A DNA stretch of 64,000 nucleotides from an uncultured delta proteobacterium (GCA_963737905.1 CAVTUQ010000002.1:192001-256000), one strand, 5' to 3'; shown: positions 32,570-64,000, numbered from the stretch's first letter. Translations and numbers: made by a program. The notes: generated by a model from the letters alone, not told the origin.

Positions 32570-32571
32570 GA

Positions 32572-34477: not shown

Positions 34478-35473
34478 ATGAGAAAAAAACTCATTGGTCC
34501 TACGCTTGCCGCCATGCTCTTTGCACTTTGCTCCCCCGCCCAGGCGCAGCAGCCGAAGAAAGTCCCGCGGATAGGGTATCTATCCGAGGTCGAACGCAGC
34601 TACCTGACTCCGCCCGTACCGAGGCAATTCGGCTGGCTCTGCGCGAGCGTGGCTACATAGAAGGACAGAACATCGCCATCGAGTACCGATATGCGGAGGG
34701 AAAGCGCGATCGGCTCCCTGAGCTTGCGGCCGAGCTGGTGCGTCTAAAGGTCGATATCATCGTGGTAGGAGGGGACCCGACGATCCAGGCGGCCAAGAAT
34801 GCAACCAAGACGATTCCCATCGTGATGGCGGGCCGTTGGGTCCGATCCTGTTGAGGCAGGCTTCGTTGAAAGCCTTGCTCGTCCCGGCGGCAACGTCACC
34901 GGCTTCACAACCCTTGACACGGAACTAGGCGGAAAGCGGCTGGAGCTGCTCAAAGAAGTCGTTCCTAAACTTTCCCGTGTCGCGGTTCTCTACGATCCGG
35001 CCAATCCGGGCAGTGTACGCGAGGTAAAAGAGCTTCTCCCAGCCGCGGCGCATGCGCTAGAGTTGACTATTCAGCCTTGGGAGATACGAGCTGCGGACGA
35101 TTTCGAGAAGGTATTTGCTGCGCTAAGCAAGCGGCGCCCGGATGGACTCTTTGTGCCCGCGGGGCGCGGTAATGACTGCTAACCAAAAACGGATTGTAGG
35201 ACTTTGCGTTAAAGAGCCGGCTACCGTCGATATACAGCAGCAGAGCATCTGTAGATGCTGGTGGGCTCATGTCCTACGGCGCGGACCTCGCGGACGGCTA
35301 CCGGCGCGTAGCATATTACGTGGACAAAATCCTGAAGGGAGCCAAGCCCGCCGATCTGCCGGTGGAACAGCCGACGAAGTTTGAGCTGGTGATCAATCTG
35401 AAAACGGCTAAGCAGATCGGCATGACAATCCCGCAGACGTTGCTGGTATCGGGCGGACAAAGTAATCAAATAG
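34478..35473 (+). pseudogene. ABC_sub_bind-type periplasmic binding protein, copy A (several indels; pseudogene or sequencing error)
   Basis: [72 protein letters not shown]. Confidence 0.85.
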
Positions 35474-35669
35474 CCGTAAGGAGTGAACGGTGAGGAGTGA
35501 GGCGATAAAACGAGCGGCTGCGTTGACACTTATTGAATGACAATGTTACATGCGGCTTGAAGCCCGAGTCGGGCGCGGCATGATTTTTCTAGGGAGTGGT
35601 TCATGAGCTTACGCTCGCCCACAGAGTATGAATATGGAGGGACCCCTTCACACGGTCCTCCCCTCGGCT

Positions 35670-35747
35670 CGTCATTCCCGTGCACGCGGGAATCCAGGTT
35701 TGTTCCCCACCGAGTTAGCCTGGATACCCGCTTTCGCGGGTATGACG
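35670..35747. repeat. Paired palindromic REP/dRS3-like element
   Basis: GTCATTCCCG..CGGGAATCCAGG facing CCTGGATACCCG..CGGGTATGAC. Confidence 0.75.
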
Positions 35748-35801
35748 TAATCCAAGTAGCCTCTGCAAATCATCCGGCACGTATTTTCAAAGGAGAAAAC
35801 T

Positions 35802-36797
35802 ATGGCGAGCAGAAAAATAGCGGGCAAAAAACTAGGTTGGGCTTTAGCCGGGGCACTCCTTGTTCTGTTGCCATCCATGGCCCGGGCGCAGTCGGAAACA
35901 GTAAAGTTGGGAGATCTGGCGGCGATCTCTAATGCGCCAATTTACATCGCCATCGAAAAAGGATTTTTCAAGGAGCAGGGCGTTAACACCGAAATATCGA
36001 ATTTTGACTCGGCGGCAAAGATGGTTCCAGCTATGGTTGCGGGAGAGCTTGAAGTATCGGTCGGGTCGGCGAGCGCCGGGCTTTTTAATGCGGTAGCTCA
36101 GCAAGCGCCGTTTCGTATCGTAGCGGACAAGGGCCAGACGCGGGAAGGATACGGCTTTTCACTGTTGGCAGTGCGCAAAGACCTGGTCGATTCGGGACAG
36201 GTCAAAACATTCAGGGACCTCAAAGGAAAAAAGATCGCTATTCTGGCTAAGGGAAACATTCAACATTATCTGGTGGGAAAGATGGCTGAAGAAGTCGGGC
36301 TCACGATCAACGACGTTGAGCTAAGCTTTCTAGGCGCTCCCAATCAGGTGACCGCTTTCGAGACCAAAGCTATCGATGCCGCCTATGCGGTGGAGCCGTG
36401 GGTGGCTCGATTCACCGAGCGCGGTGTGGCGGTGCGGTTTCGCACACCGGATCAGGTAAAAGGCTTGGGGCCTGTCCAGGTCGGCGTGATTATTTATTCC
36501 GGGAAATTCATTAACGAGCGCAGGCCAGTGGCGCAGCGCTGGATGAACGCCTATATCAAGGCAGCCGAGTTGTTCCATACAAAGGGGACAAAAGATCCGG
36601 AGATCACGGCCATTCTGGAAAAATACACAAAGGTTCCGGCCAAAGTTATTCAAGCAGCCATTCCGCCCTATCAAGATCCCAACGGTAGAGTCCTCCGAGA
36701 GAACTTGGCGGATCAAGCCCAGTGGTTTGCCAGCAACGGCATGCAGCAGCAGAAAGTTAGTATTGATAGCGCTTTGGATTTGAGCTTTTTGAAGTGA
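35802..36797 (+). CDS. ABC substrate-binding protein, NMT1/SsuA-like
   Basis: Signal peptide, IAIEKGFFKEQG, DLKGKKIA. Confidence 0.88.
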   Translation: MASRKIAGKKLGWALAGALLVLLPSMARAQSETVKLGDLAAISNAPIYIAIEKGFFKEQGVNTEISNFDSAAKMVPAMVAGELEVSVGSASAGLFNAVAQQAPFRIVADKGQTREGYGFSLLAVRKDLVDSGQVKTFRDLKGKKIAILAKGNIQHYLVGKMAEEVGLTINDVELSFLGAPNQVTAFETKAIDAAYAVEPWVARFTERGVAVRFRTPDQVKGLGPVQVGVIIYSGKFINERRPVAQRWMNAYIKAAELFHTKGTKDPEITAILEKYTKVPAKVIQAAIPPYQDPNGRVLRENLADQAQWFASNGMQQQKVSIDSALDLSFLK

Positions 36798-36985
36798 CAA
36801 ACTTCCACTCCGATTTTTTTAGCCGCAAAGAACGCAAAGGGCACCAAGTTAAAATCGCGGACAGAAAACTCGACACTCGAAATCTAACACGGTTGCAAAT
36901 GATCAAAGATGAAAAAGAGAGAATGTTCCAAATGAACGTGGAATTCGTAATTGTTTCGGCTTCACATTCGGATTTGTCTTACGGC

Positions 36986-37021
36986 TTGAACGATTTGAAC
37001 GACTTGAACCGCTTGAACGGT
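36986..37021. repeat. Nonamer tandem repeat TTGAACnnn x4
   Basis: ttgaacgat ttgaacgac ttgaaccgc ttgaacggt. Confidence 0.85.
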
Positions 37022-37041
37022 TCTAATCAAGGAAGTGTCTC

Positions 37042-38430
37042 GTGGCGAAAGACCTAAGAGGTTTTTTAAAAGAACTGGAAGCGGAGGAGCCGGACCAAAT
37101 ACTCCGCGTCAAACGGGAAGTTGATCCGCACTTCGAGGTGACCGGTGTTCTCGCCAAGCTAGAAAAGGAGCGACAATTTCCAGTCGTCATCTTCGAGAAA
37201 GTCAAAGGGTCCACCTTGCCGGTTGTAACCAATGTCCACGCCGATGCTCGGCGCCTGTTCCGAGCCATCGGGCTCAAGAATGCCACCTTGCCGGAATTTA
37301 TCCGTGAATACGCCGCTCGCGAGGATTGTCCCAAGCCGCCGGTCATGGTCAAAGAGGCTCCCGTGCAGGAGGTGGTCCTTGCCGGTAAAGATATCGATGT
37401 AACGCGACTGCCCATTCTGACCTACCACGAGAAAGACGCCGGCCGATATATAACCGCCGGCTTTGGCATCATGCGCGACCCCGACTCGGGCGTCCGCAAT
37501 GCCGGTATTTACCGCCTCATGATTCACTCCAAAGATACCTTCGGCATCCAGCTCTCAGAGACAGCTCACGGCCACTACATTTGGCAGACTTATGAGCGAC
37601 AAAATCGACCCACGCCGATGGCGGTGGCCATCGGCCATCACCCCGCTTTCTATATCGGCTGTCTTTCCTTCACTTCTTTGGAGACGGACGAGTTCTCCGT
37701 GGCGGGCGGAATCATGGGAGAGCCCGTGGAGCTGGTGCGCTGCCGGACATTGGACTTGGAAGTGCCGGCCTATGCCGAGATCGTGTTGGAATGCGAGATT
37801 CTTCCCCAGCTCCGCAAAAAGGAAGCGCCGTTTGGCGAGTATCCGGGAACCTACGGGCCGCAGCGCGACAATCCAGTGGTTCAAGTGAAGGCCATTACGA
37901 TGCGTCGCGACGCCCTGTACCAGTCGAGCTTCGTTGGTCACGCCGATAACTTGCTTCTTTCGGGAATCGTCCGCGCGACGACCATCATGAAGACGGTCAA
38001 GATGGCGTCGCCCAAGGTCCGGGCGGTCCATGTGCCGGCCTCGGGCAGGTGCCGTTTCATTTGTTATGTGTCCATTGAAAAGATTATTGAGGGCGAGCCG
38101 AAGAATGCCGCGATGGCGGCATTCGCGGCCGATCCGTTTCTTAAATACGTCGTCGTGGTCGATCAGGACGTCAACATTTTGAACGACGAGGAAGTCCTCC
38201 ACGCGATCGCCACTCGAGTGCGGGCGGACACGGACATATTCATGGTCACACACGCCAAAGGCTCTCCCCTCGATCCCGCGTCCTATGACCCCGCAGCGGG
38301 GTCCCATCTGGTCACCAAGATGGGAATTGATGCCACCCGGAAGTCGAATTATCCAGAGGAGATCAAAGTCCCGGGCTCCGACGACATCAAGCTGGAAAAT
38401 TACTTCCCCGGCTGGCGCTCGGCGAATTAG
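37042..38430 (+). CDS. UbiD family decarboxylase
   Basis: DLRGFL, RNAGIYR, EAPFGEYPG, LDP, KMGIDAT. Confidence 0.92.
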   Translation: MAKDLRGFLKELEAEEPDQILRVKREVDPHFEVTGVLAKLEKERQFPVVIFEKVKGSTLPVVTNVHADARRLFRAIGLKNATLPEFIREYAAREDCPKPPVMVKEAPVQEVVLAGKDIDVTRLPILTYHEKDAGRYITAGFGIMRDPDSGVRNAGIYRLMIHSKDTFGIQLSETAHGHYIWQTYERQNRPTPMAVAIGHHPAFYIGCLSFTSLETDEFSVAGGIMGEPVELVRCRTLDLEVPAYAEIVLECEILPQLRKKEAPFGEYPGTYGPQRDNPVVQVKAITMRRDALYQSSFVGHADNLLLSGIVRATTIMKTVKMASPKVRAVHVPASGRCRFICYVSIEKIIEGEPKNAAMAAFAADPFLKYVVVVDQDVNILNDEEVLHAIATRVRADTDIFMVTHAKGSPLDPASYDPAAGSHLVTKMGIDATRKSNYPEEIKVPGSDDIKLENYFPGWRSAN

Positions 38431-38490
38431 CATGCTTCGACACTCGACTTGGCTCAGCGCAGGTTGCCTCGACTCACCGTCCAAAGCCGT

Positions 38491-43144: not shown

Positions 43145-44157
43145 TTGAGACCTCCATCGATTTGCGTCATACGCTCGATCAGATCGACGACGCGGTGGGC
43201 GTAGCCCCAGCCGTTGTCGTACCACGCGATGGTCTTCACCATATGCTCACCGAGCATGGTCGTCGCCAGGCTGTCATAGGTGCTCGAGTACGGGCTCATC
43301 TTGACATCGCTCGAAACGATCGGGTCCTGCGCGTACTCAACGTATTTCGCGAATTTGGCGGCGATGCCGGTACGCACGACTTCATTGACCGCTGTCTTGG
43401 TAATGGCCTCTTTGGTAAACATGGTCATGTCGACCAGCGAGCCATTCGGCACCGGCACGTTCAGCGCCATGCCGGTGATCTTGCCCTCGAGATGCGGCAT
43501 CATTTGCTCGAGCACCCGCGCCGCGTTGGTATCGGTGGGAATGATGTTCTCCGAGGCGGCGCGCGAGCGGCGTAAATCACCCGCCGGCACGTCCGCTAGT
43601 CGCTGATCGTTTGTGTAAGCGTGCACGGTAGTAAAAAACATCCGCTCGATGCCGAAGGCGCTGTCGATGATCGAGATGATTGGAGCGGCGCAGTGGGCGG
43701 TGATCGAGCCATTGGAGATGATGCGATGCTCAGCCTTGAGCTGTTTGTCGTTGACCCCCATCACCACGGTGATATCAGGCTCATCGACCGGCGGCACGCA
43801 CAGGATGACGCGTTTGGCACCGGCGTCGAGGTGCTTCTTCAGCTCGGAGCGGCTGCGGTAACGCGCCGTCGCTTCGACCACCACGTCGACACCCAGCTCG
43901 CCCCACTTGACGTCGCCGGGTTCGCGGCCGGAGAGCATCTTCACCTGCCGGCCATACGTGTACAGCGCGCCTTCGCTGACCGATACCACGTCGGGAAAGC
44001 GCCCCATGATCGTGTCGTACTTGACCAAGTACTCCAGGTTCTTGTGATCAGCGACGTCGCTCACCGCCGTTACTTGGATATCGTCCCGCTTATACAGGAT
44101 GCGGAACAAGTTGCGGCCGATGCGGCCGAAGCCCATCAAACCCACCTTTGTAGTCAT
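43141..44157 (-). CDS. GAPDH-like protein lacking the catalytic cysteine
   Basis: MGFGRIGR, TVHAYTNDQ and WYDNGWGY retained; SNGSITAHC replaces SNASCTTNC; ATGA overlap with gap. Confidence 0.9.
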   Translation of the reverse strand: MTTKVGLMGFGRIGRNLFRILYKRDDIQVTAVSDVADHKNLEYLVKYDTIMGRFPDVVSVSEGALYTYGRQVKMLSGREPGDVKWGELGVDVVVEATARYRSRSELKKHLDAGAKRVILCVPPVDEPDITVVMGVNDKQLKAEHRIISNGSITAHCAAPIISIIDSAFGIERMFFTTVHAYTNDQRLADVPAGDLRRSRAASENIIPTDTNAARVLEQMMPHLEGKITGMALNVPVPNGSLVDMTMFTKEAITKTAVNEVVRTGIAAKFAKYVEYAQDPIVSSDVKMSPYSSTYDSLATTMLGEHMVKTIAWYDNGWGYAHRVVDLIERMTQIDGGLK

Positions 44158-44446
44158 TAGCTCCTCTGCTTTTTCTTGGCCCGTCCGGGTCCCGGTATGT
44201 TTTCCGAACTGCCTGCTTGATCGTAGCCGATCAGGGATTAGTGCCGTCAGCAAGTTTCTAGATGATCGCGGGTCTTGTAGGGTGATAAGATTTTCAGGTC
44301 AGACCGGCGCCGGACAGGCTGGACCCGGATCAACTTCCCTAAATACAACTATCCGACAAAGTGCTGTAAGTCAATTCAGAAACAAGGATTGTAATGATTG
44401 TTATCTCAGACACTAATCGGCCTGTAGATGCTGAGCCACAGATAAA

Positions 44447-45482: not shown

Positions 45483-46086
45483 TTACCTTCTCACTATGAA
45501 CCTCCTTAGGCAAATCAAGGAAGCGCTGATCGGGGCGAAGAGCTCACCTGGTTTCCGAATAACCTGATAGATCCAGTTGAGCCCGAAGAATCCGCCGATC
45601 GCCAGAAGGCCGTACCAGGCAATGGCTTTCTGCCAGCGGGACCGGGAGACCCTTCTGGACCTTTGCCGAAAATATCGCAGCCGGCCGCTATAGACGATCG
45701 CCGTCACGTCAAACCATCAACCTCTCTCGGTCGTTCTGGACGAAGGCAGTACTTTCTTAACCTGAATGTCAATTAGCGGAAACAATCGCTGAATAACGAA
45801 AAGCTAGCCAAGCCTTTAGATTGCGCTGTCGATGGACCGCAAAATACAAGACCCTCGGAGCGGAGTTAAAGGCAGGTTGCCGCCCCAACCCAACGGCGAT
45901 GACATCGGCGTCTGAACCCGTCAACTGTTTACAGGCGCATTGAGAAAGATACGCAAGATTAGAAAGCACGACCCCATTCAACTTCCCGCAACCATGAGCG
46001 CAACATTGACAGATGAGGAAGCTTAACACCGGTGCTTTTCGCTATTGAAGTTGATAGAACGAAGATTGGCCCGTCCGAGCAGGCAG

Positions 46087-46704
46087 ATGAAACCCGCGCA
46101 CTTCTCCATGCTACGCGCCTATCGTGCCGCCGATTTTTTCACTCTGGCTAACGGCGCGGCGGGAACCGGATCGATTTTCGCCGTCATAAGCTACGTGGAA
46201 GCGCCCGACCGCTGGCGGATCTACCTGGCTCTCTGCTTGGTGCCGCTTGCGCTATTGTTGGACATCGCCGATGGGCGAATCGCCCGGCGGCTGAACGAAC
46301 ATTCGCTCTTTGGCGGCGAGCTCGACTCTCTCGCGGATATCGTGAGCTTCGGCGTAGCGCCCGCGGTGCTCGCCTATGGGTTGGGGATGCGCGGCGGTCT
46401 CGACGTGGCTATCCTGTTGATTTTTGTGGCGTGCGGGATCAGCCGCCTGGCGCGTTATAACATTACCGCCGCCGAGATCGCCGCAGCCGGTGATAAGGTA
46501 AAATATTTTGAGGGAGCGCCGATTCCCTCGAGTTTGCTACTCGTTGCCGTGCTCGCCTTCTGCTTCCATCTGGATCTTGTCGCTGACAACTTTCCGCTTG
46601 GCGTGCTCGAAATCGCGTCCCTCCGCTGGCACCCAATCTCTTTACTTTATCTCGTGAGCGGCTCGGCCATGATCAGCAAGACGCTGCGGATTCCGAAGTT
46701 ATGA
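46087..46704 (+). CDS. CDP-alcohol phosphatidyltransferase (PssA-like), copy 1
   Basis: DIADGRIAR...GGELDSLADIVSFGVAP, RLARYN, FEGAPIP. Confidence 0.9.
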   Translation: MKPAHFSMLRAYRAADFFTLANGAAGTGSIFAVISYVEAPDRWRIYLALCLVPLALLLDIADGRIARRLNEHSLFGGELDSLADIVSFGVAPAVLAYGLGMRGGLDVAILLIFVACGISRLARYNITAAEIAAAGDKVKYFEGAPIPSSLLLVAVLAFCFHLDLVADNFPLGVLEIASLRWHPISLLYLVSGSAMISKTLRIPKL

Positions 46705-46821
46705 GCTGAGCAGTCAAAACTCGATCACCTGAATCCCGCGACCAGGACATAGGCGCGTGATTCTGAAAGATACGCAAGATTAGGAAGCCCGATCATCCCC
46801 CTGCCTTGATGAACTATGGCC

Positions 46822-47146
46822 TGCTTCAGACGAACTGTCCGAGGCGCTCGATAACCGTTGGAATAGCCCCACTTACTTGATGTCGTCCCGCTTATACAGG
46901 ATGCAGAACAAGTTGCGGCCGATCCGGCCAAAGCCCATCAAACCCACCTTTGTAGTCATTAAGTCCTATGCTTTTTCTTGACCTGTTCGGGTCCCGGTAA
47001 ATTTTTCCGAACTGACTGCCTGGCCGCAGCCGATCGAGGGATTAGTGCCGTCAGCAAGTTTCTAAGAGGATCGCGGGCTTGTAGGGGTGGTAAGATTTTT
47101 CACCAAACCGGCGTCGGACAGAGCAGTTGGACCCGGATCAATTTTC
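46822..47146 (-). pseudogene. Collapsed gap-operon remnant 1
   Basis: Matches 42136-42198 joined to 44071-~44340. Confidence 0.85.
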
Positions 47147-47238
47147 TAAGTGTTTAAGTGGATTGCTCTCTACCTTAACACCGGTGCTTTTCGCTATTGA
47201 AGTTGATAGAAGGAAGATTGGCCCGTCCGAGCAGGCAA

Positions 47239-47856
47239 ATGAAACCCGCGCACTTCTCCATGCTACGCGCCTATCGTGCCGCCGATTTTTTCACTCTGGC
47301 TAACGGCGCGGCGGGAACCGGATCGATTTTCGCCGTCATAAGCTACGTGGAAGCGCCCGACCGCTGGCGGATCTACCTGGCTCTCTGCTTGGTGCCGCTT
47401 GCGCTATTGTTGGACATCGCCGATGGGCGAATCGCCCGGCGGCTGAACGAACATTCGCTCTTTGGCGGCGAGCTCGACTCTCTCGCGGATATCGTGAGCT
47501 TCGGCGTAGCGCCCGCGGTGCTCGCCTATGGGTTGGGGATGCGCGGCGGTCTCGACGTGGCTATCCTGTTGATTTTTGTGGCGTGCGGGATCAGCCGCCT
47601 GGCGCGTTATAACATTACCGCCGCCGAGATCGCCGCAGCCGGTGATAAGGTAAAATATTTTGAGGGAGCGCCGATTCCCTCGAGTTTGCTACTCGTTGCC
47701 GTGCTCGCCTTCTGCTTCCATCTGGATCTTGTCGCTGACAACTTTCCGCTTGGCGTGCTCGAAATCGCGTCCCTCCGCTGGCACCCAATCTCTTTACTTT
47801 ATCTCGTCAGCGGCTCGGCCATGATCAGCAAGACGCTGCGGATTCCGAAGTTATGA
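47239..47856 (+). CDS. CDP-alcohol phosphatidyltransferase (PssA-like), copy 2
   Basis: Protein identical to copy 1 from the ATG onward. Confidence 0.9.
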   Translation: MKPAHFSMLRAYRAADFFTLANGAAGTGSIFAVISYVEAPDRWRIYLALCLVPLALLLDIADGRIARRLNEHSLFGGELDSLADIVSFGVAPAVLAYGLGMRGGLDVAILLIFVACGISRLARYNITAAEIAAAGDKVKYFEGAPIPSSLLLVAVLAFCFHLDLVADNFPLGVLEIASLRWHPISLLYLVSGSAMISKTLRIPKL

Positions 47857-47973
47857 GTTGAGCAGTCAAAACACGAGCACCTGAATCCCGCGACCAGGAC
47901 ATAGGCGCGTGATTCTGAAAGATAAGCAAGATTAGGAAGCCCGATCATCCCCCTACCTTGATGAACTATGGCC

Positions 47974-48249
47974 TGCTTCAGACGAACTGTCCGAGGCGCT
48001 CGATAACCGTTGGAATAGCCCCACTTACTTGATGTCGTCCCGCTTGTACAGGATGCGAGAACAAGTTGCGACCGATGCGGCCGAAGCCCATCAAACCCAC
48101 CTTTGTGGTCATTAAGTCCTATGCCTTTTTTTTGGCCTGTTCGGGTCCCAGTAAGTTTTTCTGAACTGACTGCCTGGCCGCAGCCGATCGAGGGATTAGT
48201 GCCGTCAGCAAGTTTCTAATAGGATCGCGGGCTTGTAAGGGGTAATAAG
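47974..48249 (-). pseudogene. Collapsed gap-operon remnant 2
   Basis: Same junction as remnant 1. Confidence 0.85.
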
Positions 48250-53538: not shown

Positions 53539-53922
53539 GGCATCCTCCGTTTCCGCTGTTAATGGGTTACAAACTCACGAAAGCTTCAACGTCGCGCGCG
53601 CATGTCGTGTCACATATGATTTTGATTGAATAGTGCGGCAGCAGAAAACTAGCACCATCCCTCGAAAAATTTCCGCTTACACTCTTCCGAAATAACCGGA
53701 GTGATTCAATCAAATAAGGTGGTCTTATGTCAACCGTTACAAATAGCACGGTGTAAAGCCACGTGCGAAGTCTAACAGGGTTTCGGAGACAGGAGGTTAC
53801 AGATAATGGCATCAGGGATAAAAGGCAAACTTGAGTGGATGGTAAATTCTTGAGGGGATAGCTAAGCATTGCGTTTTGGACCCGGCGACTAAAGGGTCTC
53901 GTTAAAGCGTTGGATCTAAACG

Positions 53923-54197
53923 ATGGCCAAGAACCCAATCAAAATCCCAATCAGCGCCTTTAACAAGACGCATCTTGCAACCCTCAATCGCGCCGTAAAT
54001 CCAAGCTTCCCTTAATCGTGACTCAACGCGTGAAGGCCTGCTGCGGTCTTGCTGAGTGTAAACGCTTACCAAAAGGGCGAGCAAGAACGTAAGATCCTCA
54101 AACTGCTAGCTCTGGGTGAGAGAGAGATCGCCGTTGGCGAAGGATATGATCTTGACGACGTATTGGCTGAAGCTGACGTGTTCTCTCGAAAGCGTGA
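53923..54197 (+). pseudogene. Degenerate Phd/YefM-type antitoxin
   Basis: Across frames: MAKNPIKIPIS...LIVTQR...PAAVLLSVNAYQK...GYDLDDVLAEAD. Confidence 0.6.
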
Positions 54198-54275
54198 GAG
54201 TACGAGGTGCTCAATGAATCAAGTGAGAAGGGGCGAGTGTCGAGTGTCGCGTGGATCGAGACAAAAGAAAAATAC

Positions 54276-54674
54276 ATGAAGAGAAAAATAACGGTCCTTA
54301 CCCTTTGCGCTATGCTCTTTGCGCTTTGCTATTCTGCGTCGGCGCAGCAGCCGAAGAAAGTCCCGCTGATAGGGTATCTATCGAACGGCGTTCCAGCTAC
54401 TGAGTCCACCCGTGCCGAGACAATTCGGCTGGCTCTGCGCCAGCTTGGTTACATAGAAGGACAGAACATCGCCATCGAGTACCGATATGCGGAGGGGAAG
54501 CGTGATCGGTACCCTGAGCTTGCGGACAGAATCCTGAAGGGAGCCAAGCCTGCCGATCTGCCGGTGGAGCAGCCGACAAAGTTCGAGCTGGTGATTAATC
54601 TCAAGACGGCGAAGCAGATCGGCCTGACGATTCCACAGTCTATGCTGTACAGAGCGGACAAAGTGATCAAGTGA
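54276..54674 (+). pseudogene. ABC_sub_bind copy B with an in-frame internal deletion
   Basis: N-terminus up to RYPELA fused to [11 protein letters not shown]...KVIK*; junction near 54525. Confidence 0.88.
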
Positions 54675-54797
54675 GAAGAGGGGTGAGTGACGAGTGGAAA
54701 GAGTAGAGAAAAACATGAAGTAAATCGACTGTAAATCTGGTGCATATCAGCACTAGACTTGCCAAATTATATGCAATTCGGCAATATACTTGCCGAA

Positions 54798-55939
54798 ATG
54801 TATAAACGAATCTTCAATATCCGGGAAACTGTCAAGCAGAAGTCTCTGTTCCTCTTTGGCCCGCGCCAGACCGGTAAGAGTACTCTGGTGCGTCAGAGCT
54901 TTCCCGATGCCGCCTATTACGATCTTCTCGAAGCCGACACATTTCGCGAGCTGAGCGCCCGTCCAGAGTATCTGCGGCAAACCCTCAGCCCCCAGCAATC
55001 ATTAGTCATCGTCGACGAGATCCAAAACTCCCTGCCCTTCTGGATGAGATTCAACTATTGATCGAACGGAACAAGAAGTTGCGAGTCATTCTAACCGGAA
55101 GCAGCGCTAGAAAACTCAAGCGAGGAGCCGCCAATCTTCTCGGCGGACGTGCCTGGGTCTGCCGCCTGCATCCGCTTGTGTCGGCGGAGCTGGATGGCCA
55201 AAGATTACTCCATCGTCTCAATCGCGGGAGTCTCCCGTCGATCATTGATTCCGAGCACTACAAGGAAGACCTTAAAGCCTACGTGGGCACGTATCTACAG
55301 GGAGAGATCCGCGCTGAGGGATTGACCCGCTCCATTGAGAATTTTTCCCGTTTTCTTGAGGTCGCCGGACTTACGAGTGGTGAGCAGATTAATTTTAGTT
55401 CAGTAGCTGCCGACGCTGGATTCCCGCCAAGAACGGTGCGAGAACACTACCAGATTCTCGAGGACACGCTGGTTGGACACCAGCTCCCGGCCTATCAAAA
55501 GACTGCCAAGCGTAAGCCGGTGGCCACCGCCAAGTTCTACCTTTTTGATGTCGGTGTCGCCAACACGCTCAAGCGAATACCCGGGATTGAAGAGGGTTCC
55601 AACGCCTACGGTCACGCCTTGGAACATCTCATTTTTTTGGAACTTCGAAGCTATCTGGATTACCACAGGCTGGATCATGAGCTCACCTATTGGCGCAGCC
55701 GCTCTCAGTTCGAAGTGGACTTCCTGGTGGGAGACCAGATCGGAATTGAAGTGAAATCAAAGGCGCGGGTATTGCCTCGCGATTACAAAGGACTTAGCGC
55801 TCTAAGCGAGGAAGTTCGACTGAAGCGAAAGATCGTAATCTGTGCGGAGAAGATGCGGCGCCGGGCCGACGATGGCACAGAGATCATGCCGGCAACGCTT
55901 TTTCTCAAAGAACTGTGGGCGGGCGATTTAATTCATTGA
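54798..55939 (+). CDS. AAA_14 ATPase with DUF4143 domain (apparent frameshift near 55030)
   Basis: GPRQTGKS, DEIQ, LTGSSA, AKFYLFDVG, EVDF...IEVK. Confidence 0.88.
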
Positions 55940-56161
55940 TTCATAGCAACCCCAACGCTCGTGTGCAAGACTCAACTGTTAAGCCAAGCAAAGATTTCTC
56001 CCTTCGAATTCAAGGATTTTATCCTGCTTGACAGGTGAACCACTCGCTGGTCTATAGTCCGACGTGAAAGAGAATCATCGCTCTTGATCCAACGAAAATG
56101 AACAGACCAATCTTTATCTCCCAGGGGGCGAGTGTCGAGTTGTAAGAGAGAGCAGGGAAAA

Positions 56162-57152
56162 ATGAAGAGAATAATCAGCGTCCTTACCCTTTGCGCTTTG
56201 CTCTTTGCGCTTAGCTATTCCGCCTCGGCGCAGCAGCCGAAGAAAGTCCCTCGGATAGGCTATCTATCGAGGAGCGATCCAGCTCGTGAGTCCACCCGTT
56301 CCGAGCTAATTCGGCTGGCTCTACGCGAGCGTGGCTACATAGAAGGACAGAACATTGCCATCGAGTACCGATATGCGGAGGGGAAGCGCGATCGGTTCCC
56401 TGAGCTTGCGGCCGAGCTGGTGCGTCTCAAGGTCGATATCATCGTGGTAGCAGGAGGGAACAGGCCAACCCGGGCGGCCAAGAATGCGACCAAGACGATT
56501 CCCATCGTTATGACGGGCCTGGGGTCGATCCGGTCGAGGCAGGCCTGGTTGAAAGCCTTGCCCGTCCCGGCGGCAACGTCACCGGCATTACACTCCTTGC
56601 CGGAGAACTAGGTGGGAAGAGGCTGGAGCTGCTCAAAGAAGCGGTTCCCAAACTTGCCCGTGTCGCGGTTCTCTACGATCCGGCCACTTCGTCCACTGTA
56701 CACGAGGTGAAAGAGGTACTTCCAGCCGCGGCGCGCGCACTGGGGTTGACTATTCAGCCTTGGAGGTACGAGGTGCGGACGGTTTCGAGAAGGTATTCGC
56801 TGCGCTAAACAAGGAGCGCCCGGATGGACTCTACGTGTCCTGGGGCCCGCTAATGCTTGCTAACCGAAAACGGATCGCGGGCCTTGCGTTAAAGAGCCGG
56901 TTACCTTCGATGTACGTCAGGAGAGAATTTGTAGATGCCGGCGGGCTCATGTCCTACGGCGCGGACTTCGCGGACAGCTACCGGCGCGTCGCATATTTCG
57001 TGGACAAAATCCTTAAAGGCGCAAAACCAGCCGATCTCCCGGTGGAGCAGCCGACGAAGTTCGAATTGGTGATCAACTTGAAGGCAGCGAAGCAGATCGG
57101 CCTGACGATTCCGCCCAATGTGCTGGCGAGGGCGGACAAGGTAATTCAATGA
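56162..57152 (+). pseudogene. ABC_sub_bind copy C (two indels; possibly sequencing errors)
   Basis: Full set of family motifs across three frames. Confidence 0.88.
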
Positions 57153-57240
57153 TGGCAGAAAACCAAGCAGCGATGCCAGGATTGAACTGAATTCTCCATC
57201 TATCAAAACTAAGTCCCGTTTGTTGTCGTCCGTATTCAGT

Positions 57241-57368
57241 CCTAGAACCGGAGCTAGTGGCACAGATCGAGTTCACCGAATGGACGCCGGACGGTCACCT
57301 GAGACATTCGAAGTTTGTCGGGTTGCGAGAAGACAAGAAGGGCGCGGAAAGTTGTCCGGGAGGATTAG
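57241..57368 (+). pseudogene. C-terminal fragment of an ATP-dependent DNA ligase (LigD/LigC-type OB domain)
   Basis: LEPELVAQIEFTEWTPDGHLRHSKFVGLREDK. Confidence 0.75.
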
Positions 57369-57385
57369 ACGGCTCGTCTATCCAG

Positions 57386-58135
57386 TTACGGATTCTTCTC
57401 GTTCTTCCCTACGACCACCGTGTAGAGAGATAGCTTGGAAAGCTTGTAGATGTCTTCCACGTTAAACTCTGTCGCTTCCAGAAAAGGCTCCAATTTCAGT
57501 TTAGTGCGCCAGCCGAGGTGGCGTGTAACGGGATCGAGCGCCTCCGTTAGCGGGCCAAAAATGGGTAAGTCCGTTGTAAAGTGGTTGACGATCACGATTT
57601 TGCCTCCTGGACGGCAAACGCGCTTGGCCTCAGCCAGCATGCGAATAGGATCCGGAACTACCGTGACCGTATGAAAGGCTGTGACATAATCGAAGCTGTT
57701 ATCGGCAAAGGTTAAATTGAGCGCATCCATTTCGATGACTTGTAAATGAGACCAGTTGTTTGTCGCGATTTTCGCACGTGCCTGGGCGAGCATATCCGCC
57801 GCCAAATCAATGCCAATAACCTTGGAATGGCGCGGGTAGGCCGGAAATGAAGTGCCGGTACCTACGCCGAGTTCAAGCACTTGCGCTCCGGGTGGAATGT
57901 TTAGCGACTCGATCACCTGTCTTATCTGATCATAAAAGATCTTGCCGAAGGTCTTGTCGTAAAGCAGAGCGTACTCTGAGTAAAGCCTGCTCTCGTGGGC
58001 CTGTGGACGATTTCTTTTCCGTCTCGGCGCAAGGCTCCGGATGTTCTTGATGCCACTTCTTAGTTCCCTCAGCTCTTTTGGAAGAGTTCTTTTTACTTTT
58101 TCACGAAAATTCTTGCGAAGCTCCATAGCGTCCAT
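57386..58135 (-). CDS. Class I SAM methyltransferase (PmtA-like phospholipid N-methyltransferase)
   Basis: LELGVGTG, GIDL, MDAL, VVPDP, RVCRPGG.IVIVNHF. Confidence 0.8.
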   Translation of the reverse strand: MDAMELRKNFREKVKRTLPKELRELRSGIKNIRSLAPRRKRNRPQAHESRLYSEYALLYDKTFGKIFYDQIRQVIESLNIPPGAQVLELGVGTGTSFPAYPRHSKVIGIDLAADMLAQARAKIATNNWSHLQVIEMDALNLTFADNSFDYVTAFHTVTVVPDPIRMLAEAKRVCRPGGKIVIVNHFTTDLPIFGPLTEALDPVTRHLGWRTKLKLEPFLEATEFNVEDIYKLSKLSLYTVVVGKNEKNP

Positions 58136-58227
58136 TTTTCTGTCTGTAGGCATTCCAAACGTAACTTGCGCAAAGCGAGAGTTTGTATTCCTCACTCGTT
58201 GTCCATCTTCCGTCTAGGCCGTGAAAA

Positions 58228-58371
58228 TCAGCGAACCGATGGTTCTAACTTCTCCACCTTCTCAAGCTCAAGGGCCAAATCGTAAAGCTCTTTTATGATT
58301 TTCTTGTCGTGTGTCTCGACTAACCTACGGCTCAGTTCATCCATCCGTTCTTCTATCTCTTGAAGGGTCAT
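58228..58371 (-). CDS. Small helical hypothetical protein (47 aa)
   Basis: MTLQEIEERMDELSRRLVETHDKKIIKELY..., amphipathic helix pattern. Confidence 0.4.
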   Translation of the reverse strand: MTLQEIEERMDELSRRLVETHDKKIIKELYDLALELEKVEKLEPSVR

Positions 58372-58555
58372 AATCATAAAAAAGGAATAATCCTTTGAAC
58401 AGAGGTTGTCTTGACATTGGGCGACATTCTCTTGACACCTCAACGGTGTCCTGGGTTGAAGGGGCAAGAGATTGAACTGAATTCTCCAACGAACAAATCC
58501 TGTGAGATTTGCCTGCGGCAGGCTGATTCTGGCCTTCCCACTCAACTAATCCCTA

Positions 58556-58616
58556 TCGCCTTTCGCCGTGTAAATCACACTTTCCTTTATCTCTATCCGC
58601 GTGATACATAACGCTC
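58556..58616 (+). promoter_or_regulatory. Conserved upstream element of the SBP genes, copy 1 of 4
   Basis: TCGCCTTTCGCCGTGTAAATCACA...GTGA(T/G)ACATAAC; also near 59890-59949, 61872-61931 and 63249-63309. Confidence 0.6.
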
Positions 58617-58625
58617 GAAACGAGG

Positions 58626-59586
58626 TGCTCAAAAGAACTGCGGCGCCATCAATTGGTTGTAGTGGTGTTGCTTGCTTTGGAGTGATAGCGAGGCGAGCAG
58701 CGAGAAAATCCAGGATAGGTTTCCTGGGTGTGACCTCCCTTCACATACAGCTCGTCTTGATGCATTCGACAGGGTCTTCGCGATCTCGGCTATGTGGAAG
58801 GCAGAATATCATCATTGAATATCGCTATGCGGATGGAAAATTGGATCGCGTTCCGCCCTCGCGGCCGAACTGGTGCGCCTCAACGTTGACGTCATCGTCA
58901 CGGGCGGTTCAGCGGCACCGCCCCGCTAAGGAAGCGACGGCGACTATTCATTGTAATGGCACAGGATAGATCAGTTGGCAACGGATTGTCGCGAGCCTGG
59001 CGCGGCCGGGCGGGAATATTACGGGACTGTCCATTGTGGCGCCGGAACTGAGCGGCAAACAACTGGAGCTTCTGAAGGAGACTGTTCCCGAGCTTTGGCG
59101 CGTGGTCGTCCAAGCAATCCCAACGAGCCGAGTTATATGCAATTGCGAAAAGAGACGGAACTCGCGGCGAAAGCGCTCAAAATACAAATTCAATTTTTAG
59201 ACGCACGCAGTGCTAAGGATGTTGAACCGCATTCGTGAGGCAACCAAGAGGCGCGCTGACGCAGTTCTCGTACCGACCATGCCGATCGTTGCCTCCCAGC
59301 GGGCACAGATCGCCGATCTCGCGGTCAAAAACCGCCTTCCGGCGATGTACGGGCAGCCGGAGTATGTGGACGTTGGTGGTCTGATGTTTTACGGTGCCAG
59401 TATTACCGATTTGTTTCGTCGCGCCGCCACTTACGCGGACAAGATTCTCAAAGGCGCTAAGCCTGCCGATCTTCCCGTGGAGCAGCCGATCAAGTTCGAG
59501 TTCATCATAATCTGAAAGCCGCGAAGCAAATTGGCCTGACCATTCCGCCGAACGTGCTGGCGAGAGCGGATAGGGTTATTAAATAA
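58626..59586 (+). pseudogene. ABC_sub_bind copy D (many indels)
   Basis: [54 protein letters not shown]. Confidence 0.85.
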
Positions 59587-59646
59587 TTTCGGATTGCGAA
59601 TTTCGAATTTCGGATTGAGAGGAATAACAATGCGGCAAGTTCGGAT

Positions 59647-59805
59647 CGACGGCTTGAACGCTTTCCAAACTCGGGAAGGCATTTGCCGGAGTTTCCAGAG
59701 TTACCGCATCGAGAGGTCATCGTTTGGCCTTACCGTTTTTTCTATCGGCAGCAGGGGGAAAACAATGGGTCGTTGCTGTCTGGCACGGTGCGCAAATCCC
59801 CAAAG
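59647..59805 (+). pseudogene. RelE/ParE toxin C-terminal fragment, copy 1
   Basis: RRLERFPNSGRHLPEFPELPHREVIVWPYRFFYR. Confidence 0.75.
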
Positions 59806-60018
59806 TTCCCTCGGGCAGCTAACACGCCGCTCAAACCTGCTGCGGGTCATTTTTGGGAGAACTCCGGCCTTCCTACGTCACGACTACCGTCGCCTTTCGC
59901 CGTGTAAATCACATTTTTCTTTATCTTATCCACGTGAGACATAACGCTCTAAAGAGGGCGCTGAATCAAGTGAGAAGGGGCGAGTGTTAAGTGACGAGTG
60001 GCGAGAGCAGAGAAAAAT

Positions 60019-61011
60019 ATGAACAGAAAAATCACCGCCTTTACTCTTTGCGCTATGCTCTTTGCGCTTTGCGGCTCAGTTGACGCGCAACAGACGGGAA
60101 AAGTCTTTCGCATCGGCATCCTGGATCCGACCACTGCTTCCGGTAGTGCCGTCGTTTGGGAAACGTTGCGACAGGAACTCAGCAAGCTTGGATGGATCGA
60201 GGGAAAGAATATCGCCATCGAGTACCGGTTTTCAGAAGGAAAAACTGAGAACCTACCTGAGCTTGCGGCGGACCTGGTTCGTCAAAAGGTTGATCTAATT
60301 GTGACCTCAGGGGTACCGCCGGCATTGGAAGCCAAGAAAGCGACCTCGACCATCCCCATCGTGATGGCAGCCGCTCTTGACCCTGTGGCTTTAGGTCTGG
60401 TTGCCAGTTTGGGGCGGCCGGGAGGCAATGTCACCGGGCTCGCGACTTTAGGGCCCGAGCTAAATACCAAAAGGCTGGAGATACTCAAGGACATAATCCC
60501 CAAGCTCGCCCGAGTTGGACTGCTGCGGCGGCCGCCGGGAGTTAACGTTGGGCAAGACCTCCAACTGAAAGAGCTCAGGCTTGCGGCTCTGGCGCTGAAG
60601 CTAAAATTGGAGGAGATCGACACTCAACTCGACGCCAAAGGTTTGGAGAGCGCCTTTCAAACCGCGAAGCAGAAACAGGTCGGTGCGATTATGACGACCG
60701 CCCTTCGCGTCTTTTTCGCCGAAAGGAAGCGAATCGTCGAGCTTGCCACAAAACACCGGTTGCCGGCGATTTACGGCCGGAAGGAGTTCGTGGATGAGGG
60801 TGGCCTTATGTCCTATGGGGAGGACTCCATTGACCAATATCGGCGGGCGGCCGGTTACGTCGACAAGATTTTGAAGGGTGCCAAGCCCGCCGATCTGCCG
60901 GTACAGCAGGCAACGAAGTTTGAGTTCGTGATCAACTTGAAGGCAGCGAAACAGATCGGTCTGACAATTCCACCTGACGTGTTAGCGCGGGCGAATAAAG
61001 TGATCAAGTGA
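60019..61011 (+). CDS. ABC_sub_bind-type periplasmic binding protein, copy E (intact)
   Basis: Signal peptide, uninterrupted 330-aa frame with all family motifs. Confidence 0.93.
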   Translation: MNRKITAFTLCAMLFALCGSVDAQQTGKVFRIGILDPTTASGSAVVWETLRQELSKLGWIEGKNIAIEYRFSEGKTENLPELAADLVRQKVDLIVTSGVPPALEAKKATSTIPIVMAAALDPVALGLVASLGRPGGNVTGLATLGPELNTKRLEILKDIIPKLARVGLLRRPPGVNVGQDLQLKELRLAALALKLKLEEIDTQLDAKGLESAFQTAKQKQVGAIMTTALRVFFAERKRIVELATKHRLPAIYGRKEFVDEGGLMSYGEDSIDQYRRAAGYVDKILKGAKPADLPVQQATKFEFVINLKAAKQIGLTIPPDVLARANKVIK

Positions 61012-61944
61012 TGGAAAAAACCAAGCAGCGGTGGCGGAGTGAATTGAATTCTCCTCACAAATACTGCGGGTCACAGTGATTTGAATGCAATGATGAAAGA
61101 CGTGAGTACTATTTGGTGCGACGTTTTTGTTTGACGCTCTTGAAGGGCCTGCAGGCGCTTGATGGCTCTGCTCGACATTCACAACATGCCAGGATAGAAA
61201 ACGACACCTCTCGACAGGCCGGACAAGTTAGGTGGCCACAGAGTAAACATCTTACTTTAAAAGAGGCCACTCTGGTCGCTTGCTCATTTTTGAATCCGGC
61301 TATTCTTAGTTTCATTGCCGCTATCGTGAGTTTGAGCGGTCATCAGGGGATGTAGACGAATGTTACGCCGCCGATTAGAGGGCCGCGCTCTTTGTTTTCC
61401 TTGAGCAAGATTCTTAGTATTGGATGCGGACTTTACTCTCTCAATCTCTTCTGACATCCTGCTTTAACTCAACGATTTCTTTCTTCTGGGTTCATAGGGG
61501 ACTCCAAATCGCAGATCCCTCAAACTCTGCCCCAATTTGCTCAAGGAACAGTCGATGACTACGGAGACCGCCAATTTTTTCTTGAAAGATTCCATCAAAG
61601 CCCACTCCTCTAGTCACAAATAGTAGATCACCTTTGGCGCAAAGATGATGCCGGGTAAAGTCGTCACGTCTTGTACTGAAGTAGCCTTAGATGGAAACTC
61701 TTCTACCGGGTCTTGCCAGTCGTGAGGGAGACGTTTGACAACTTGACAAAAGCCGGGACTCGGAAGACTGAAATGAATTCCCCGACCTAACCAGTTCACT
61801 TCTTGTTCAACTGACGCGCCGTACAATTCAATCTCAGGCTGATTCTGGCCTTCCCACTCGATGAACTCCTGTCGCCTTCCGCCTTGTAAATCACACTTTT
61901 CTTTATTTCCGTCCGCGTGATACATAACCTCGAAGAGGTGTGCA

Positions 61945-62942
61945 ATGAAGAAGAGCTGGTCTGTCATCAATCCTGGTTGCAGTGGTACTGCTTGCTGTTG
62001 TGGTCATAGCCGAGGCGCAGCAGCCAACGAAATTCCCCGGCTAGGACGCCTAAGCTCCTGGCTCCCCGTCCGCTTAACACGGCCCGCATCGAGGCATTCC
62101 GCCAAGGTCTGCGCGAGCTTGGGTACGTCGAGGGGAAAAACATTGTCATCGAAAGGCGATCTGTAGAGGGAAGACTCGATCGCCTCCCCGCGCTCGCGGC
62201 CGACCTAGTGCGTCTCAAGGTCGACATCATCGTCACGGCTGGTCAGCCAGCAACGCGCGCCGCCAAAGAAGCAACTTCGACGATTCCCATTGTCATGACG
62301 CAATGATGACGATCCTGTTGCCAACGGGTTCATCGCCAGCCTTGCGCGACCCGGCGGGAACATTACTGGATTGTCCACGCTTTGCCCCGGAGCTAAGCGG
62401 AAAACAACTGGAGCTTTTGAAGGAGATCGTTCCTACGCTATCCAGCGTGGCCGTCCTGGGGACTTCGACCGTCCCCAAGCAACGTGCTAATGCGTAAAAG
62501 AGATAGAACTCGCCACACGAGGCGTTTGAAAGTGAAGTTTCGATTCCTAGACGTACAAAATCCCGAGGAAATCGAGAGCACATTCCGAGCCATAAAAAAG
62601 GAGCGTGCTGAAGCAGTCCTTTTGCTGAGTGGACCGGACCTTTGGCTTCTCAGCGAACACAGATTGTAGACCTCGCGGTGAAGAACCAACTTCCGGCGGT
62701 GTACCCCTCTTTAGATTTTGTCCAAGACGGGGGGCTTATGAGCTACGGCACGAACTATGCACGACTTAGACCGGCGCGTCGCTACCTATGTGGATAAAAT
62801 CCTGAAAGGCAGAAAGCCCGCTGACCTGCCAGTAGAACAGCCAACGAAGTTCGAGCTCGTCGTCAATCTGAAAGCCGCAAAGCAGATCGGCTTGACGATT
62901 CCGCCGAATGTGCTGGCGAGGGCGGATAGGGTTATTAAATAA
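61945..62942 (+). pseudogene. ABC_sub_bind copy F (many indels)
   Basis: GAGGTG RBS; family motifs across frames; ends RADRVIK*. Confidence 0.85.
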
Positions 62943-63002
62943 TTTCGGATTGCGAATTTCGAATTTCGGATTGAGAGGAATAACAATGCGGCAAGTTCGG
63001 AT

Positions 63003-63162
63003 CGACGGCTTGAACGCTTTCCAAACTCGGGAAGGCATTTGCCGGAGTTTCCAGAGTTACCGCATCGAGAGGTCATCGTTTGGCCTTACCGTTTTTTCTA
63101 TCGGCAGCAGGGGGAAAACATATGGGTCGTTGCTGTCTGGCACGGTGCGCAAAATCCCCAAA
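63003..63162 (+). pseudogene. RelE/ParE toxin C-terminal fragment, copy 2
   Basis: ...REVIVWPYRFFYRQQGENIWVVAVWHGAQ. Confidence 0.78.
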
Positions 63163-63392
63163 GTTCCCTCGGGCAGCTAACACGCCGCTCAAACCTGCTG
63201 CGGGTCATTTTTGGGAGAACTCCGGCCTTCCTACGTCACGACTACCCGTCGCCTTTCGCCGTGTAAATCACATTTTTCTTTATCTCTATCCACGTGAGAC
63301 ATAACGCTCTAAATGAGGTGCGCGCTGAATCAAGGGAGAAGGGGCGAGTGTCGAGGGTCGAGTGACAAGTGGATCGAGACAGAGAGGAGCAG

Positions 63393-64000
63393 ATGAAGGA
63401 AAAAATTAGGGTCCTGACGATATGCGCCATGCTCTTTGCGCTTTGCCCGTCCGCCGAGGCGCAGCAGCCGGGAAAAGTCTTTCGCATCGGCATCCTGGAT
63501 CCGACCACTGCTTCCGGTAGTGCCGTCGTTTGGGAAACGTTGCGACAGGAACTCAGCAAGCTTGGATGGATCGAGGGAAAGAATATCGCCATCGAGTACC
63601 GGTTTTCAGAAGGAAAAACTGAGAACCTACCTGAGCTTGCGGCGGACCTGGTTCGGCTAAAGGTTGATCTAATTGTGGTCTCGGGGGGGCCACCGGCGTT
63701 AGCGGCCAAGAGCGCCACCACAACAATCCCCATCGTGATGACGACCTCTGGAGACCCCGTAGCTCAGGGTCTGGTTGCCAGTCTAGGGCGGCCGGGAGGC
63801 AATGTTACCGGGCTGTCGAGTTTAGTGCCTGAGCTAAATAGCAAGAGGCTGGAGATCCTCAATGATGCAGTCCCCAAGCTTGCCCGAGTTGGATTTTTGC
63901 GGCCGTCGAGAAGCGGGTTAGGAGACCTCTCAATGAAGGAGATCAGGCCTGCGGCTCTGGCACTGAAGGTAAAATTGGAGGAGATCGAGACTCAGGTCGA
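63393..64000 (+). CDS. ABC_sub_bind copy G (runs off the window end)
   Basis: GAGGAG RBS, MKEKIRVL..., AQQPGKVFRIGILD, SLGRPGGNVTG. Confidence 0.88.
   Translation, partial: MKEKIRVLTICAMLFALCPSAEAQQPGKVFRIGILDPTTASGSAVVWETLRQELSKLGWIEGKNIAIEYRFSEGKTENLPELAADLVRLKVDLIVVSGGPPALAAKSATTTIPIVMTTSGDPVAQGLVASLGRPGGNVTGLSSLVPELNSKRLEILNDAVPKLARVGFLRPSRSGLGDLSMKEIRPAALALKVKLEEIETQV

Follow-up and report, generated by a model that had tools for sequence, protein, structure and literature searches.

Seven PF04392 genes in a 64-kb stretch

This study concerns seven genes of the periplasmic binding-protein family PF04392 (ABC_sub_bind), which lie on the + strand between positions 34478 and 64000 of a 64,000-nt stretch of DNA (hereafter the window; GCA_963737905.1, CAVTUQ010000002.1:192001-256000) from an uncultured bacterium. 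The host genome is a 6.7-Mb assembly of 46 contigs (87% complete, 6.7% contamination). A sequence-only reading of the window had described the genes as a repertoire of orphan type-I binding proteins with a conserved framework and antibody-like hypervariable segments, comparable to complementarity-determining regions (CDRs). All seven genes that it proposed were recovered with the same starts and on the same strand, and every peptide string quoted in it, such as the EVE, NGV, or RSD after GYLS, was present, with the caution that EVE sits exactly at a frame break in copy A. The repertoire itself proved to be real, and the window shows part of an expansion found throughout the lineage, in Binatia-like genomes. 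The seven copies, an upstream element, and a tract shared by two copies are given below; site positions in all subfamilies follow the residue numbers of copy E.

34478..35448, + strand: copy A, A/C subfamily; four hidden Markov model (HMM) pieces in two frames (34430-34600, 34420-34833, 34835-35161, and 35200-35448)
54276..54674, + strand: copy B, a deletion remnant; HMM positions 19-117, then 313-361
56162..57152, + strand: copy C, A/C subfamily; in three pieces, separated by 1-base breaks near 56518 and 56761
58556..58579, + strand: conserved 24-nt upstream element; in the alignment, repeated before E (59890), F (61872), and G (63249)
58626..59586, + strand: copy D, at least three pieces; degraded, first gene of the duplicated D-E unit
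60019..61011, + strand: copy E, intact in a single frame, 330 aa; signal peptide ending in A-x-A, then QQ
60095..60281, + strand: tract identical in E and G (63469-63655 in G), the longest exact match (187 nt); the proportions of synonymous (pS) and nonsynonymous (pN) differences are both 0 in its windows
61945..62942, + strand: copy F, in six pieces spread over three frames; corresponds to D within the F-G unit
63393..64000, + strand: copy G, intact in a single frame, paralogue of E; continues to 64376 beyond the window

In the Pfam scan (cut-off 25.9 bits), copy E scored 171.5 bits over profile positions 19-293 of 293, the part of copy G inside the window scored 76.4 bits, and copy B scored 42.6 bits over the last 50 profile positions only. 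As assembled, five of the seven copies are broken, and only E and G are intact. Copy B consists of a signal peptide and the first ~90 residues fused in frame to the last ~50, with HMM positions 118-312 missing, and in both of its parts it is ~86% identical at the nucleotide level to A and to C. Copy D is recognisable only over its C-terminal two thirds, in pieces, with a degraded N-terminal part, and its profile match contains one TGA and two TAG codons as well as a break at 59508. Lipoprotein anchoring of the PF04392 copies was considered and rejected: a Leu just before the Cys does not fit the usual lipobox, and many copies carry no Cys.

Self-comparison of the window, on which the identities of B to A and C also rest, showed that A and C are 84.5% identical over 975 nt, and that a two-gene unit has been duplicated in tandem, D-E (58519-61007) and F-G (61835-64375) sharing 79.3% identity over 2557 nt. 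The earlier description of the DNA framework as highly similar was thus overstated, the truly identical stretch being the 187-nt tract alone. Since the rest of E and G is only ~79% identical, this tract is best read as the product of gene conversion. The 24-nt element upstream of D to G gave seven matches in the genome at no more than three mismatches, and all seven lie within 450 bp upstream of a PF04392 locus (beyond the window at G000:C7:456103, C13:9957, and C33:13274). The element may act as a common promoter or operator. At E values up to 0.1, an Rfam scan of 53900-64000 returned no family, including for the 24-nt element.

Cleft-side variation and divergence of the paralogues

Copy E was modelled with AlphaFold from an alignment of 53 sequences (predicted local distance difference test score, pLDDT, 89.9; predicted template modelling score, pTM, 0.82), and the model matched the two-lobed class I/cluster B binding-protein fold. 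The best structural matches in Foldseek were 3LKV (E = 1.9e-27; template modelling scores, TM, 0.81/0.89), 3LFT (TM 0.80/0.89), and 6HNI, the three solved members of the family, which were also found by sequence match. In this fold, the cleft is bordered by the strands at their C-terminal ends and by the helices that follow at their first turn, and the opposite loops face away. The cleft side was defined here by topology (from the last two strand residues to the first turn of the next helix) together with alignment to the solved relatives, and not by coordinates.

The results showed that amino-acid differences between A and C fall on 34 of 83 cleft-side positions versus 30 of 190 elsewhere (Fisher p = 1e-5), and those between E and G on 27 of 92 versus 28 of 205 (p = 0.0014), which confirmed the earlier observation that changes cluster in the same short segments, although its A-C comparison was one between two broken copies. 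Among the 52 intact paralogues of the genome, mean entropy was 2.26 bits on the cleft side versus 1.40 bits on the far side (Mann-Whitney p = 3e-9), the variable sites thus lying on the cleft side and not being scattered. Codons outside the purifying class are distributed likewise, with 44 of 89 on the cleft side versus 13 of 81 on the far side in the E subfamily (p = 3e-6) and 42 of 92 versus 14 of 81 in the A/C subfamily (p = 5e-5). E residues 253/254 and 270 align to Ala-246 and Tyr-262 of VC_1101, and both positions differ between E and G. The two specificity residues are given in the available text of PMC6816091, the paper on CD0873, as Ala-246/Glu-263 and Tyr-262/Gln-284. Given the cleft-side excess and the alignment to specificity residues, the clustering can be taken as real and the variable patches as probable pocket positions. 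Compensated frameshifts were also considered as the source of the variable E/G loop, but this segment has the lowest DNA identity (0.63) and no shifted match.

Between E and G, nonsynonymous divergence (dN) was 0.129 and synonymous divergence (dS) 0.501, giving a ratio (omega) of 0.26; over the C-terminal 60 codons, pN was 0-0.06 at a pS of ~0.6. Among the closest intact paralogues, omega ranged from 0.21 to 0.48 in the E subfamily (seven genes) and from 0.27 to 0.50 in the A/C subfamily (five genes), with dS from 0.38 to 0.9 and never below 0.38, and we read these copies as old duplicates. Taken over the pairwise comparisons, omega was 0.11-0.50. No intact pair in the genome exceeded 80% amino-acid identity, the median being 48%.

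Codon site models were then applied to the two subfamilies (7 and 5 sequences) in our own implementation, with branch lengths fixed from M0 and naive posteriors. Omega under M0 was 0.30 in the E subfamily and 0.40 in the A/C subfamily; in both, ~65% of codons were placed at omega ~0.06-0.11 and ~32% near neutral. Model M2a was favoured over M1a in both subfamilies, with twice the log-likelihood difference (2dlnL) at 10.7 and a positive class of 1.6% of codons at omega 10 for E, and 27.1 and 5.1% of codons at omega 6.7 for A/C, so that dN/dS is not at or below 1 everywhere. With three partitions and separate trees, 2dlnL was 0.09, 2.2, and 12.2 in the E subfamily and 12.3, 7.4, and 3.9 in the A/C subfamily, summing to 14.4 and 23.6 on 6 degrees of freedom; a modest signal of positive selection survives partitioning. 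Positions 120, 125, and 253 are the candidate positive sites of the E subfamily, all three on the cleft side; those of the A/C subfamily are 38, 76, 79, 101, 120, 236, 254, 257, and 320, seven of the nine on the cleft side. The positively selected class includes a position aligned to a known specificity residue. The diversifying selection that had been proposed for these genes is supported for a small class of codons (1.6-5%), but not for the majority, which are purifying or near neutral.

Homologues of E from other metagenomes were compared on the pocket side. Those at 93% identity keep 71 of 73 and 70 of 73 pocket-side residues. In homologues at 80-87% identity, the pocket-side residues have changed disproportionately and in recurring combinations (e.g., MTNGG with YFQKEF), an example being homologue P0039 (43/72 on the pocket side vs. 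205/232). The pockets come as discrete, inherited types and do not form a hypervariable continuum. No adenine bias was detected in the four pairs tested, in which mismatches follow base composition (between E and G, 48 of 188 mismatches have A in E, vs. 25% A in composition). In the genome, at its 87% completeness, no reverse transcriptase of the type found in diversity-generating retroelements (DGRs) was identified; the only reverse transcriptase (RVT_1) carries a group II intron maturase (GIIM) domain, and the window contains none, as had been claimed.

Genomic expansion, transporters, and histidine kinases

In the host genome, 127 Pfam matches to PF04392 were chained into 119 loci, 52 of which are single open frames of at least 300 aa, with 34 multi-frame and 31 partial loci. 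Tandem arrays comprise up to ~15 loci, and the large arrays are located on contigs C27, C29, C7, C31, C26, and C37. The named close homologues are from 'Candidatus Binatia bacterium'. In the taxonomic family of the host, all 24 genomes had PF04392 matches, many of them at least 43, versus none of the 11 genomes of the sister family (a tally that includes the unpublished genomes G006 and G012), and a sample of 90 further genomes of the phylum had 0-10 matches each. The same clade, with its conserved C-terminal motif, was found in metagenome-assembled genomes labelled Rokubacteria/Methylomirabilota, Alpha- and Betaproteobacteria, and others. Among the 78 related loci returned, which come from several phyla, 32 hold 2-7 copies within 9 kb. 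A second and larger expansion, of ~315 NMT1-like loci (256 intact by a profile of our own), is often interleaved with the PF04392 arrays (e.g., G000:C27:14509-17655), and the two families together account for more than 430 loci in 6.7 Mb.

Permeases of PF02653 occur at four places in the genome, each as a LivH/LivM pair with two ATPases (LivHMGF-type), and a Peripla_BP_6 gene or fragment stands beside three of the four. A degraded operon of this type was noted at G000:C4:192957-194634 (L006), with the first permease in two pieces with stops and a 142-aa Peripla_BP_6 fragment. The LivHMGF operon located 3 kb from the C7 array was considered as a cognate transporter and rejected, since a Peripla_BP_6 gene of its own accompanies it and none of the 78 related loci has a permease of this kind nearby. 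A canonical operon, with one BPD_transp_2 permease, one ATPase, and a PF04392 protein, exists in the relative G018. Its permease type was found in 2 of 41 relatives, namely intact in G018 and with three stop codons in the same-genus G002, where the locus (L016; G002:C269:16419-20468) is interrupted by two TGA and one TAA; the latter looks like a transporter caught while being lost. In the host genome, tblastn with the G018-type permease gave zero matches, which leaves ~52 intact PF04392 copies versus 0 canonical permeases. Relatives at 98-100% completeness also have no canonical PF04392-type permease, five relatives at 95-100% completeness have 1-10 PF02653 matches versus 23 to more than 43 PF04392 matches, and a canonical permease was found within 4 kb of none of the 78 related loci. 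Genome-wide, cognate permease/ATPase operons matching the binding proteins in number are thus almost entirely absent. The copies of the host genome share only 23-28% identity with the binding protein encoded in the G018 operon, so the expanded clade need never have depended on a G018-type transporter.

Histidine kinases recur next to PF04392 genes. One PF04392 domain is fused to HisKA and HATPase_c (C26:87295-89079), and the C37 array encloses a dCache-HAMP-GAF histidine kinase with response regulators. Four of the seven dCache_1 genes of the genome are immediately preceded, on the same strand, by a PF04392 locus, against a chance expectation of ~0.9% for each. The same kinase type occurs in 7 of the 78 related loci, with sensor parts 47-84% identical, and Pfam confirmed the kinase in L020, L021, L025, L029, and L059 (102 of 275 open reading frames were scanned). 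At L020, a copy 84.7% identical to C at the nucleotide level ends 13 bp before the kinase. A midpoint-rooted tree of the 52 intact copies places two of the kinase-linked copies at its base and one inside the expanded clade. These gene arrangements would support a sensory role for some PF04392 members, with the dCache kinases as the best candidate for a shared partner, a role that for the window copies is extended from their relatives.

The remaining features of the window agree with the earlier statement that none of the seven genes has a permease or ATPase of its own type beside it, the ABC genes present being NMT1_2-linked or exporter-type:

4741-8375: two ABC_membrane/ABC_tran fusions, exporter-type
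31781-32566, + strand: ABC ATPase of NitT/TauT type, not of the PF04392 partner type
32707-33552, + strand: BPD_transp_1 permease of NitT/TauT type, not of the PF04392 partner type
33766-34405, + strand: nucleotidyltransferase/HepT toxin-antitoxin pair, between the BPD_transp_1 permease and copy A
35802-36797, + strand: NMT1_2 binding protein, the likely partner of the ATPase and permease at 31781-33552; a member of the second, larger expanded family

The toxin-antitoxin pair and copy A separate the BPD_transp_1 permease from the NMT1_2 binding protein, and a MazF-like gene and a CopG-like gene adjoin other PF04392 copies (L002:9581-10138 and L001:10091-10567). Genes of UbiD-family decarboxylases recur near PF04392 copies at three loci (37027-38427 in the window; L002:8135-9469 and 11920-12930; L001:2-973), which is a weak hint at aromatic-acid ligands. 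The earlier reading had reported no integron integrase; the window does contain an Xer-type tyrosine recombinase on the − strand (22520-23470; Phage_integrase with an N-terminal SAM-like domain) and a tandem duplicate (46022-47094 and 47174-48249, 97.8% identical over 1076 nt) with two CDP-alcohol phosphatidyltransferase genes, of whose flank a third, partial copy lies at 44070-44336.

Competing readings and known systems

We consider it probable, at roughly 80%, that the seven genes locally represent a lineage-specific expansion of one PF04392 clade in a Binatia-like soil bacterium; they would have diverged through ordinary duplication and selection, and their products would function without a dedicated transporter. 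The family would grow by tandem duplication, as exemplified by the D-E and F-G units, and the copies would then diverge slowly, some of them being homogenised by gene conversion and some lost, with no dedicated hypermutation system involved. Purifying selection would hold the two-lobed scaffold, above all its last ~55 residues, and the strand ends and helix starts lining the cleft would be relaxed or, at a few sites, positively selected. Each paralogue would in this way have one of several discrete and stable types of pocket, presumably suited to different small ligands; judged from the solved relatives, amino-acid-like or aromatic acids would be the first guess. The proteins are presumably secreted to the periplasm and act there without a transporter of their own; once loaded with ligand, they may dock on shared membrane partners. 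The best-supported partners are the dCache-HAMP-GAF histidine kinases, with which at least part of the family might serve as sensory co-receptors; the alternative would be delivery to non-cognate ABC permeases.

Several points weigh against this interpretation. None of the seven window copies adjoins a kinase, only 4-5 of the 119 genome loci do, and a sensory role is an extrapolation for PF04392 loci without a kinase neighbour. The genome is 87% complete with 6.7% contamination, so that a missing-looking permease could be unassembled. The site tests used M0-fixed branches and few sequences from recombining paralogues, which inflates such tests, and partitioning weakened the result in the E subfamily, where one of three parts was significant. 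The assignment of positions to the cleft side came from topology and alignment and was not measured on coordinates. Finally, five of the seven window copies are broken as assembled, so the stretch may contribute little function.

The breaks themselves can be explained in two ways. The frameshifts in A, C, D, and F might be consensus errors of a long-read-type metagenome assembly, with six of the seven window copies really intact, a proposal to which we give somewhat less than even odds. At all four break sites examined (55023, 56518, 56761, and 59508), contigs from four other metagenomes, at least 92% alike and possibly from other strains or paralogues, carry one extra, frame-restoring base: an extra G at both breaks of copy C (near 56518 and 56761), the C missing from D at 59508 (extra-base depth 15.7/21.3, 34.8/146.4, 648.9/1301.5, and 456.6/1207), and, in every covering contig of all four metagenomes, one more A at 55023. 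The last site, beside a four-A run, splits an AAA_14/DUF4143 ATPase gene (54735-55939) by a 1-base break. Consensus errors would also fit the Binatia-like related loci, which have 28 breaks in 36.0 kb on long contigs versus 2 in 56.9 kb on short ones (a grouping of our own, from contig names), and a baseline of 33 breaks in 295.5 kb (0.11 per kb) in the ~315 NMT1-like loci of the host assembly. However, the PF04392 loci of the same assembly have 67 breaks in 94.6 kb (0.71 per kb), and 19 of them are in three or more pieces versus 5 of the 315 NMT1-like loci; related loci from other phyla on long contigs have few breaks (2 in 32.0 kb), a homopolymer of at least four bases is present at just one of the four sites, and single-base errors can explain neither the 195-position deletion of B nor the 31 partial remnants. 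We rejected programmed frameshifting and phase variation, as the break sites are not long repeats. The excess of breaks over the NMT1 family, the 34 multi-frame and 31 partial loci, and the deletion in B would be expected instead of a decaying relic, whose transporter was lost and whose binding proteins drift to pseudogenes, the variable segments being their least constrained parts; the absence of the canonical permease from the host and its pseudogene in G002 (two TGA, one TAA) point the same way. Yet the 52 open copies with omega 0.2-0.5 and ~65% of codons at omega 0.06-0.1, the pN of 0-0.06 at pS ~0.6 in the C-terminal region of E and G, the 93%-identity homologues in other metagenomes, the 23-28% identity to the transporter-linked protein of G018, and the 2 breaks in 56.9 kb of the short-contig Binatia-like assemblies make decay the least probable of the readings considered here. 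The interpretation as a diverged expansion stands whether the frameshifts are real or consensus errors.

Very improbable, too, is an antibody-like repertoire in the strict sense, i.e., CDR-like segments kept hypervariable by continuing diversifying selection or a targeted mechanism and serving scavenging, sensing, or decoy roles. The cleft-side clustering in both pairs and family-wide, the small class at omega above 1 in both subfamilies, and the disproportionate pocket changes in homologues at 80-87% identity, as in P0039, are all in its favour, and the concentration of assembly breaks in PF04392 genes could reflect strain-level heterogeneity. In contrast, the closest intact copies are separated by a dS of 0.38-0.9 at omega 0.2-0.5, the positive class comprises only 1.6-5% of codons, homologues at 93% identity retain 70-71 of the 73 pocket-side residues, and the pocket variants are a few recurring types rather than a continuum. 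Moreover, the identical E-G tract has no point difference at all, mismatches show no adenine bias of the kind expected from a DGR, and the sole reverse transcriptase is of group II intron type. The earlier claim of CDR-like hypervariability was therefore not upheld, and the comparison with antibodies is apt as a loose image, in which varied pockets sit on a conserved scaffold, but not as a mechanism. A more specific proposal, speculative and in our estimate unlikely, is that the orphan PF04392 proteins form a bank of interchangeable ligand-recognition subunits which have a docking face in common, made up of their nearly invariant last ~55 residues, and which deliver their input to a few dCache-HAMP-GAF kinases. 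Such a bank would have grown from an ancestral module of binding protein and kinase, not from a transporter, and the excess breaks would partly be strain-to-strain turnover of the repertoire. If this were true, one kinase would receive many chemical inputs in a modular periplasmic sensory system.

Our literature search found no paper on such an expansion of PF04392, and the main genome paper on Binatota (PMC8262859) does not mention it in its available text. Together, the ~119 PF04392 and ~315 NMT1-like loci make up a set of binding proteins comparable in size with the largest on record, which in the available text of PMC5994714 is 434 proteins associated with tripartite tricarboxylate transporters (TTT) in Rhodoplanes. 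The Binatia are widespread uncultured bacteria of soil and sediment, whose physiology is known from genomes only. The dCache kinases offer a concrete, testable partner, and the paralogues, as naturally occurring pocket variants of a single scaffold, could help in deriving specificity rules or in designing biosensors.

Diversity-generating retroelements concentrate variation in a ligand-binding surface on a conserved scaffold, and the host proteins resemble their targets in that pockets vary on such a scaffold. Unlike DGR systems, the host has no DGR-type reverse transcriptase and no adenine-specific mismatches, no template repeat was seen, and the divergence is old and also spread over synonymous sites. 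LuxP-LuxQ and TorT-TorS are sensor kinases that depend on binding proteins, and at the kinase-linked loci, as in these systems, a type-I binding-protein gene immediately precedes the gene of a kinase whose periplasmic sensor is of double-PAS/Cache type. The kinase-linked loci differ in that another binding-protein family is involved and few of the many host copies are so placed, and the likeness is one of gene positions. The canonical PF04392 proteins, as far as described in the available parts of the sources, bind aromatic amino acids: VC_1101 (3LKV, Phe), SP1069 (3LFT, Trp), CD0873 (6HNI, Tyr), and TrpX (PMC6816091, PMC10443332, and PMC9382623). The host proteins share with them the Pfam family, the fold, and a strongly conserved C-terminal motif, and their variable positions align to the residues that set the preference for Phe, Tyr, or Trp, the aligned residues differing between paralogues. 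The canonical genes, however, are single-copy and stand in an operon with one permease and one ATPase, whereas the expanded clade has no such operon and is only 23-32% identical to the canonical binders.

The closest precedent is the expansion of orphan Bug/TctC (TTT) binding proteins. In the available text of PMC5994714, orphan TTT proteins are over-represented in Bordetella, Cupriavidus, and Rhodoplanes, and the likeness to the host family extends to tens to hundreds of paralogues per genome, tandem arrays, and few membrane components. Some TTT copies likewise lie beside histidine kinases, and shared transporters or sensing have been proposed for them (PMC5994714, same limits). The host family differs in being PF04392 (ABC-type class I) and not TctC/PF03401, in belonging to another phylum, and in that its canonical membrane partner is missing in most genomes and not merely outnumbered; the host genome also has a second expanded family, the ~315 NMT1-like loci. 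The PF04392 expansion would thus represent a second, independent case of binding proteins multiplied away from their transporters.

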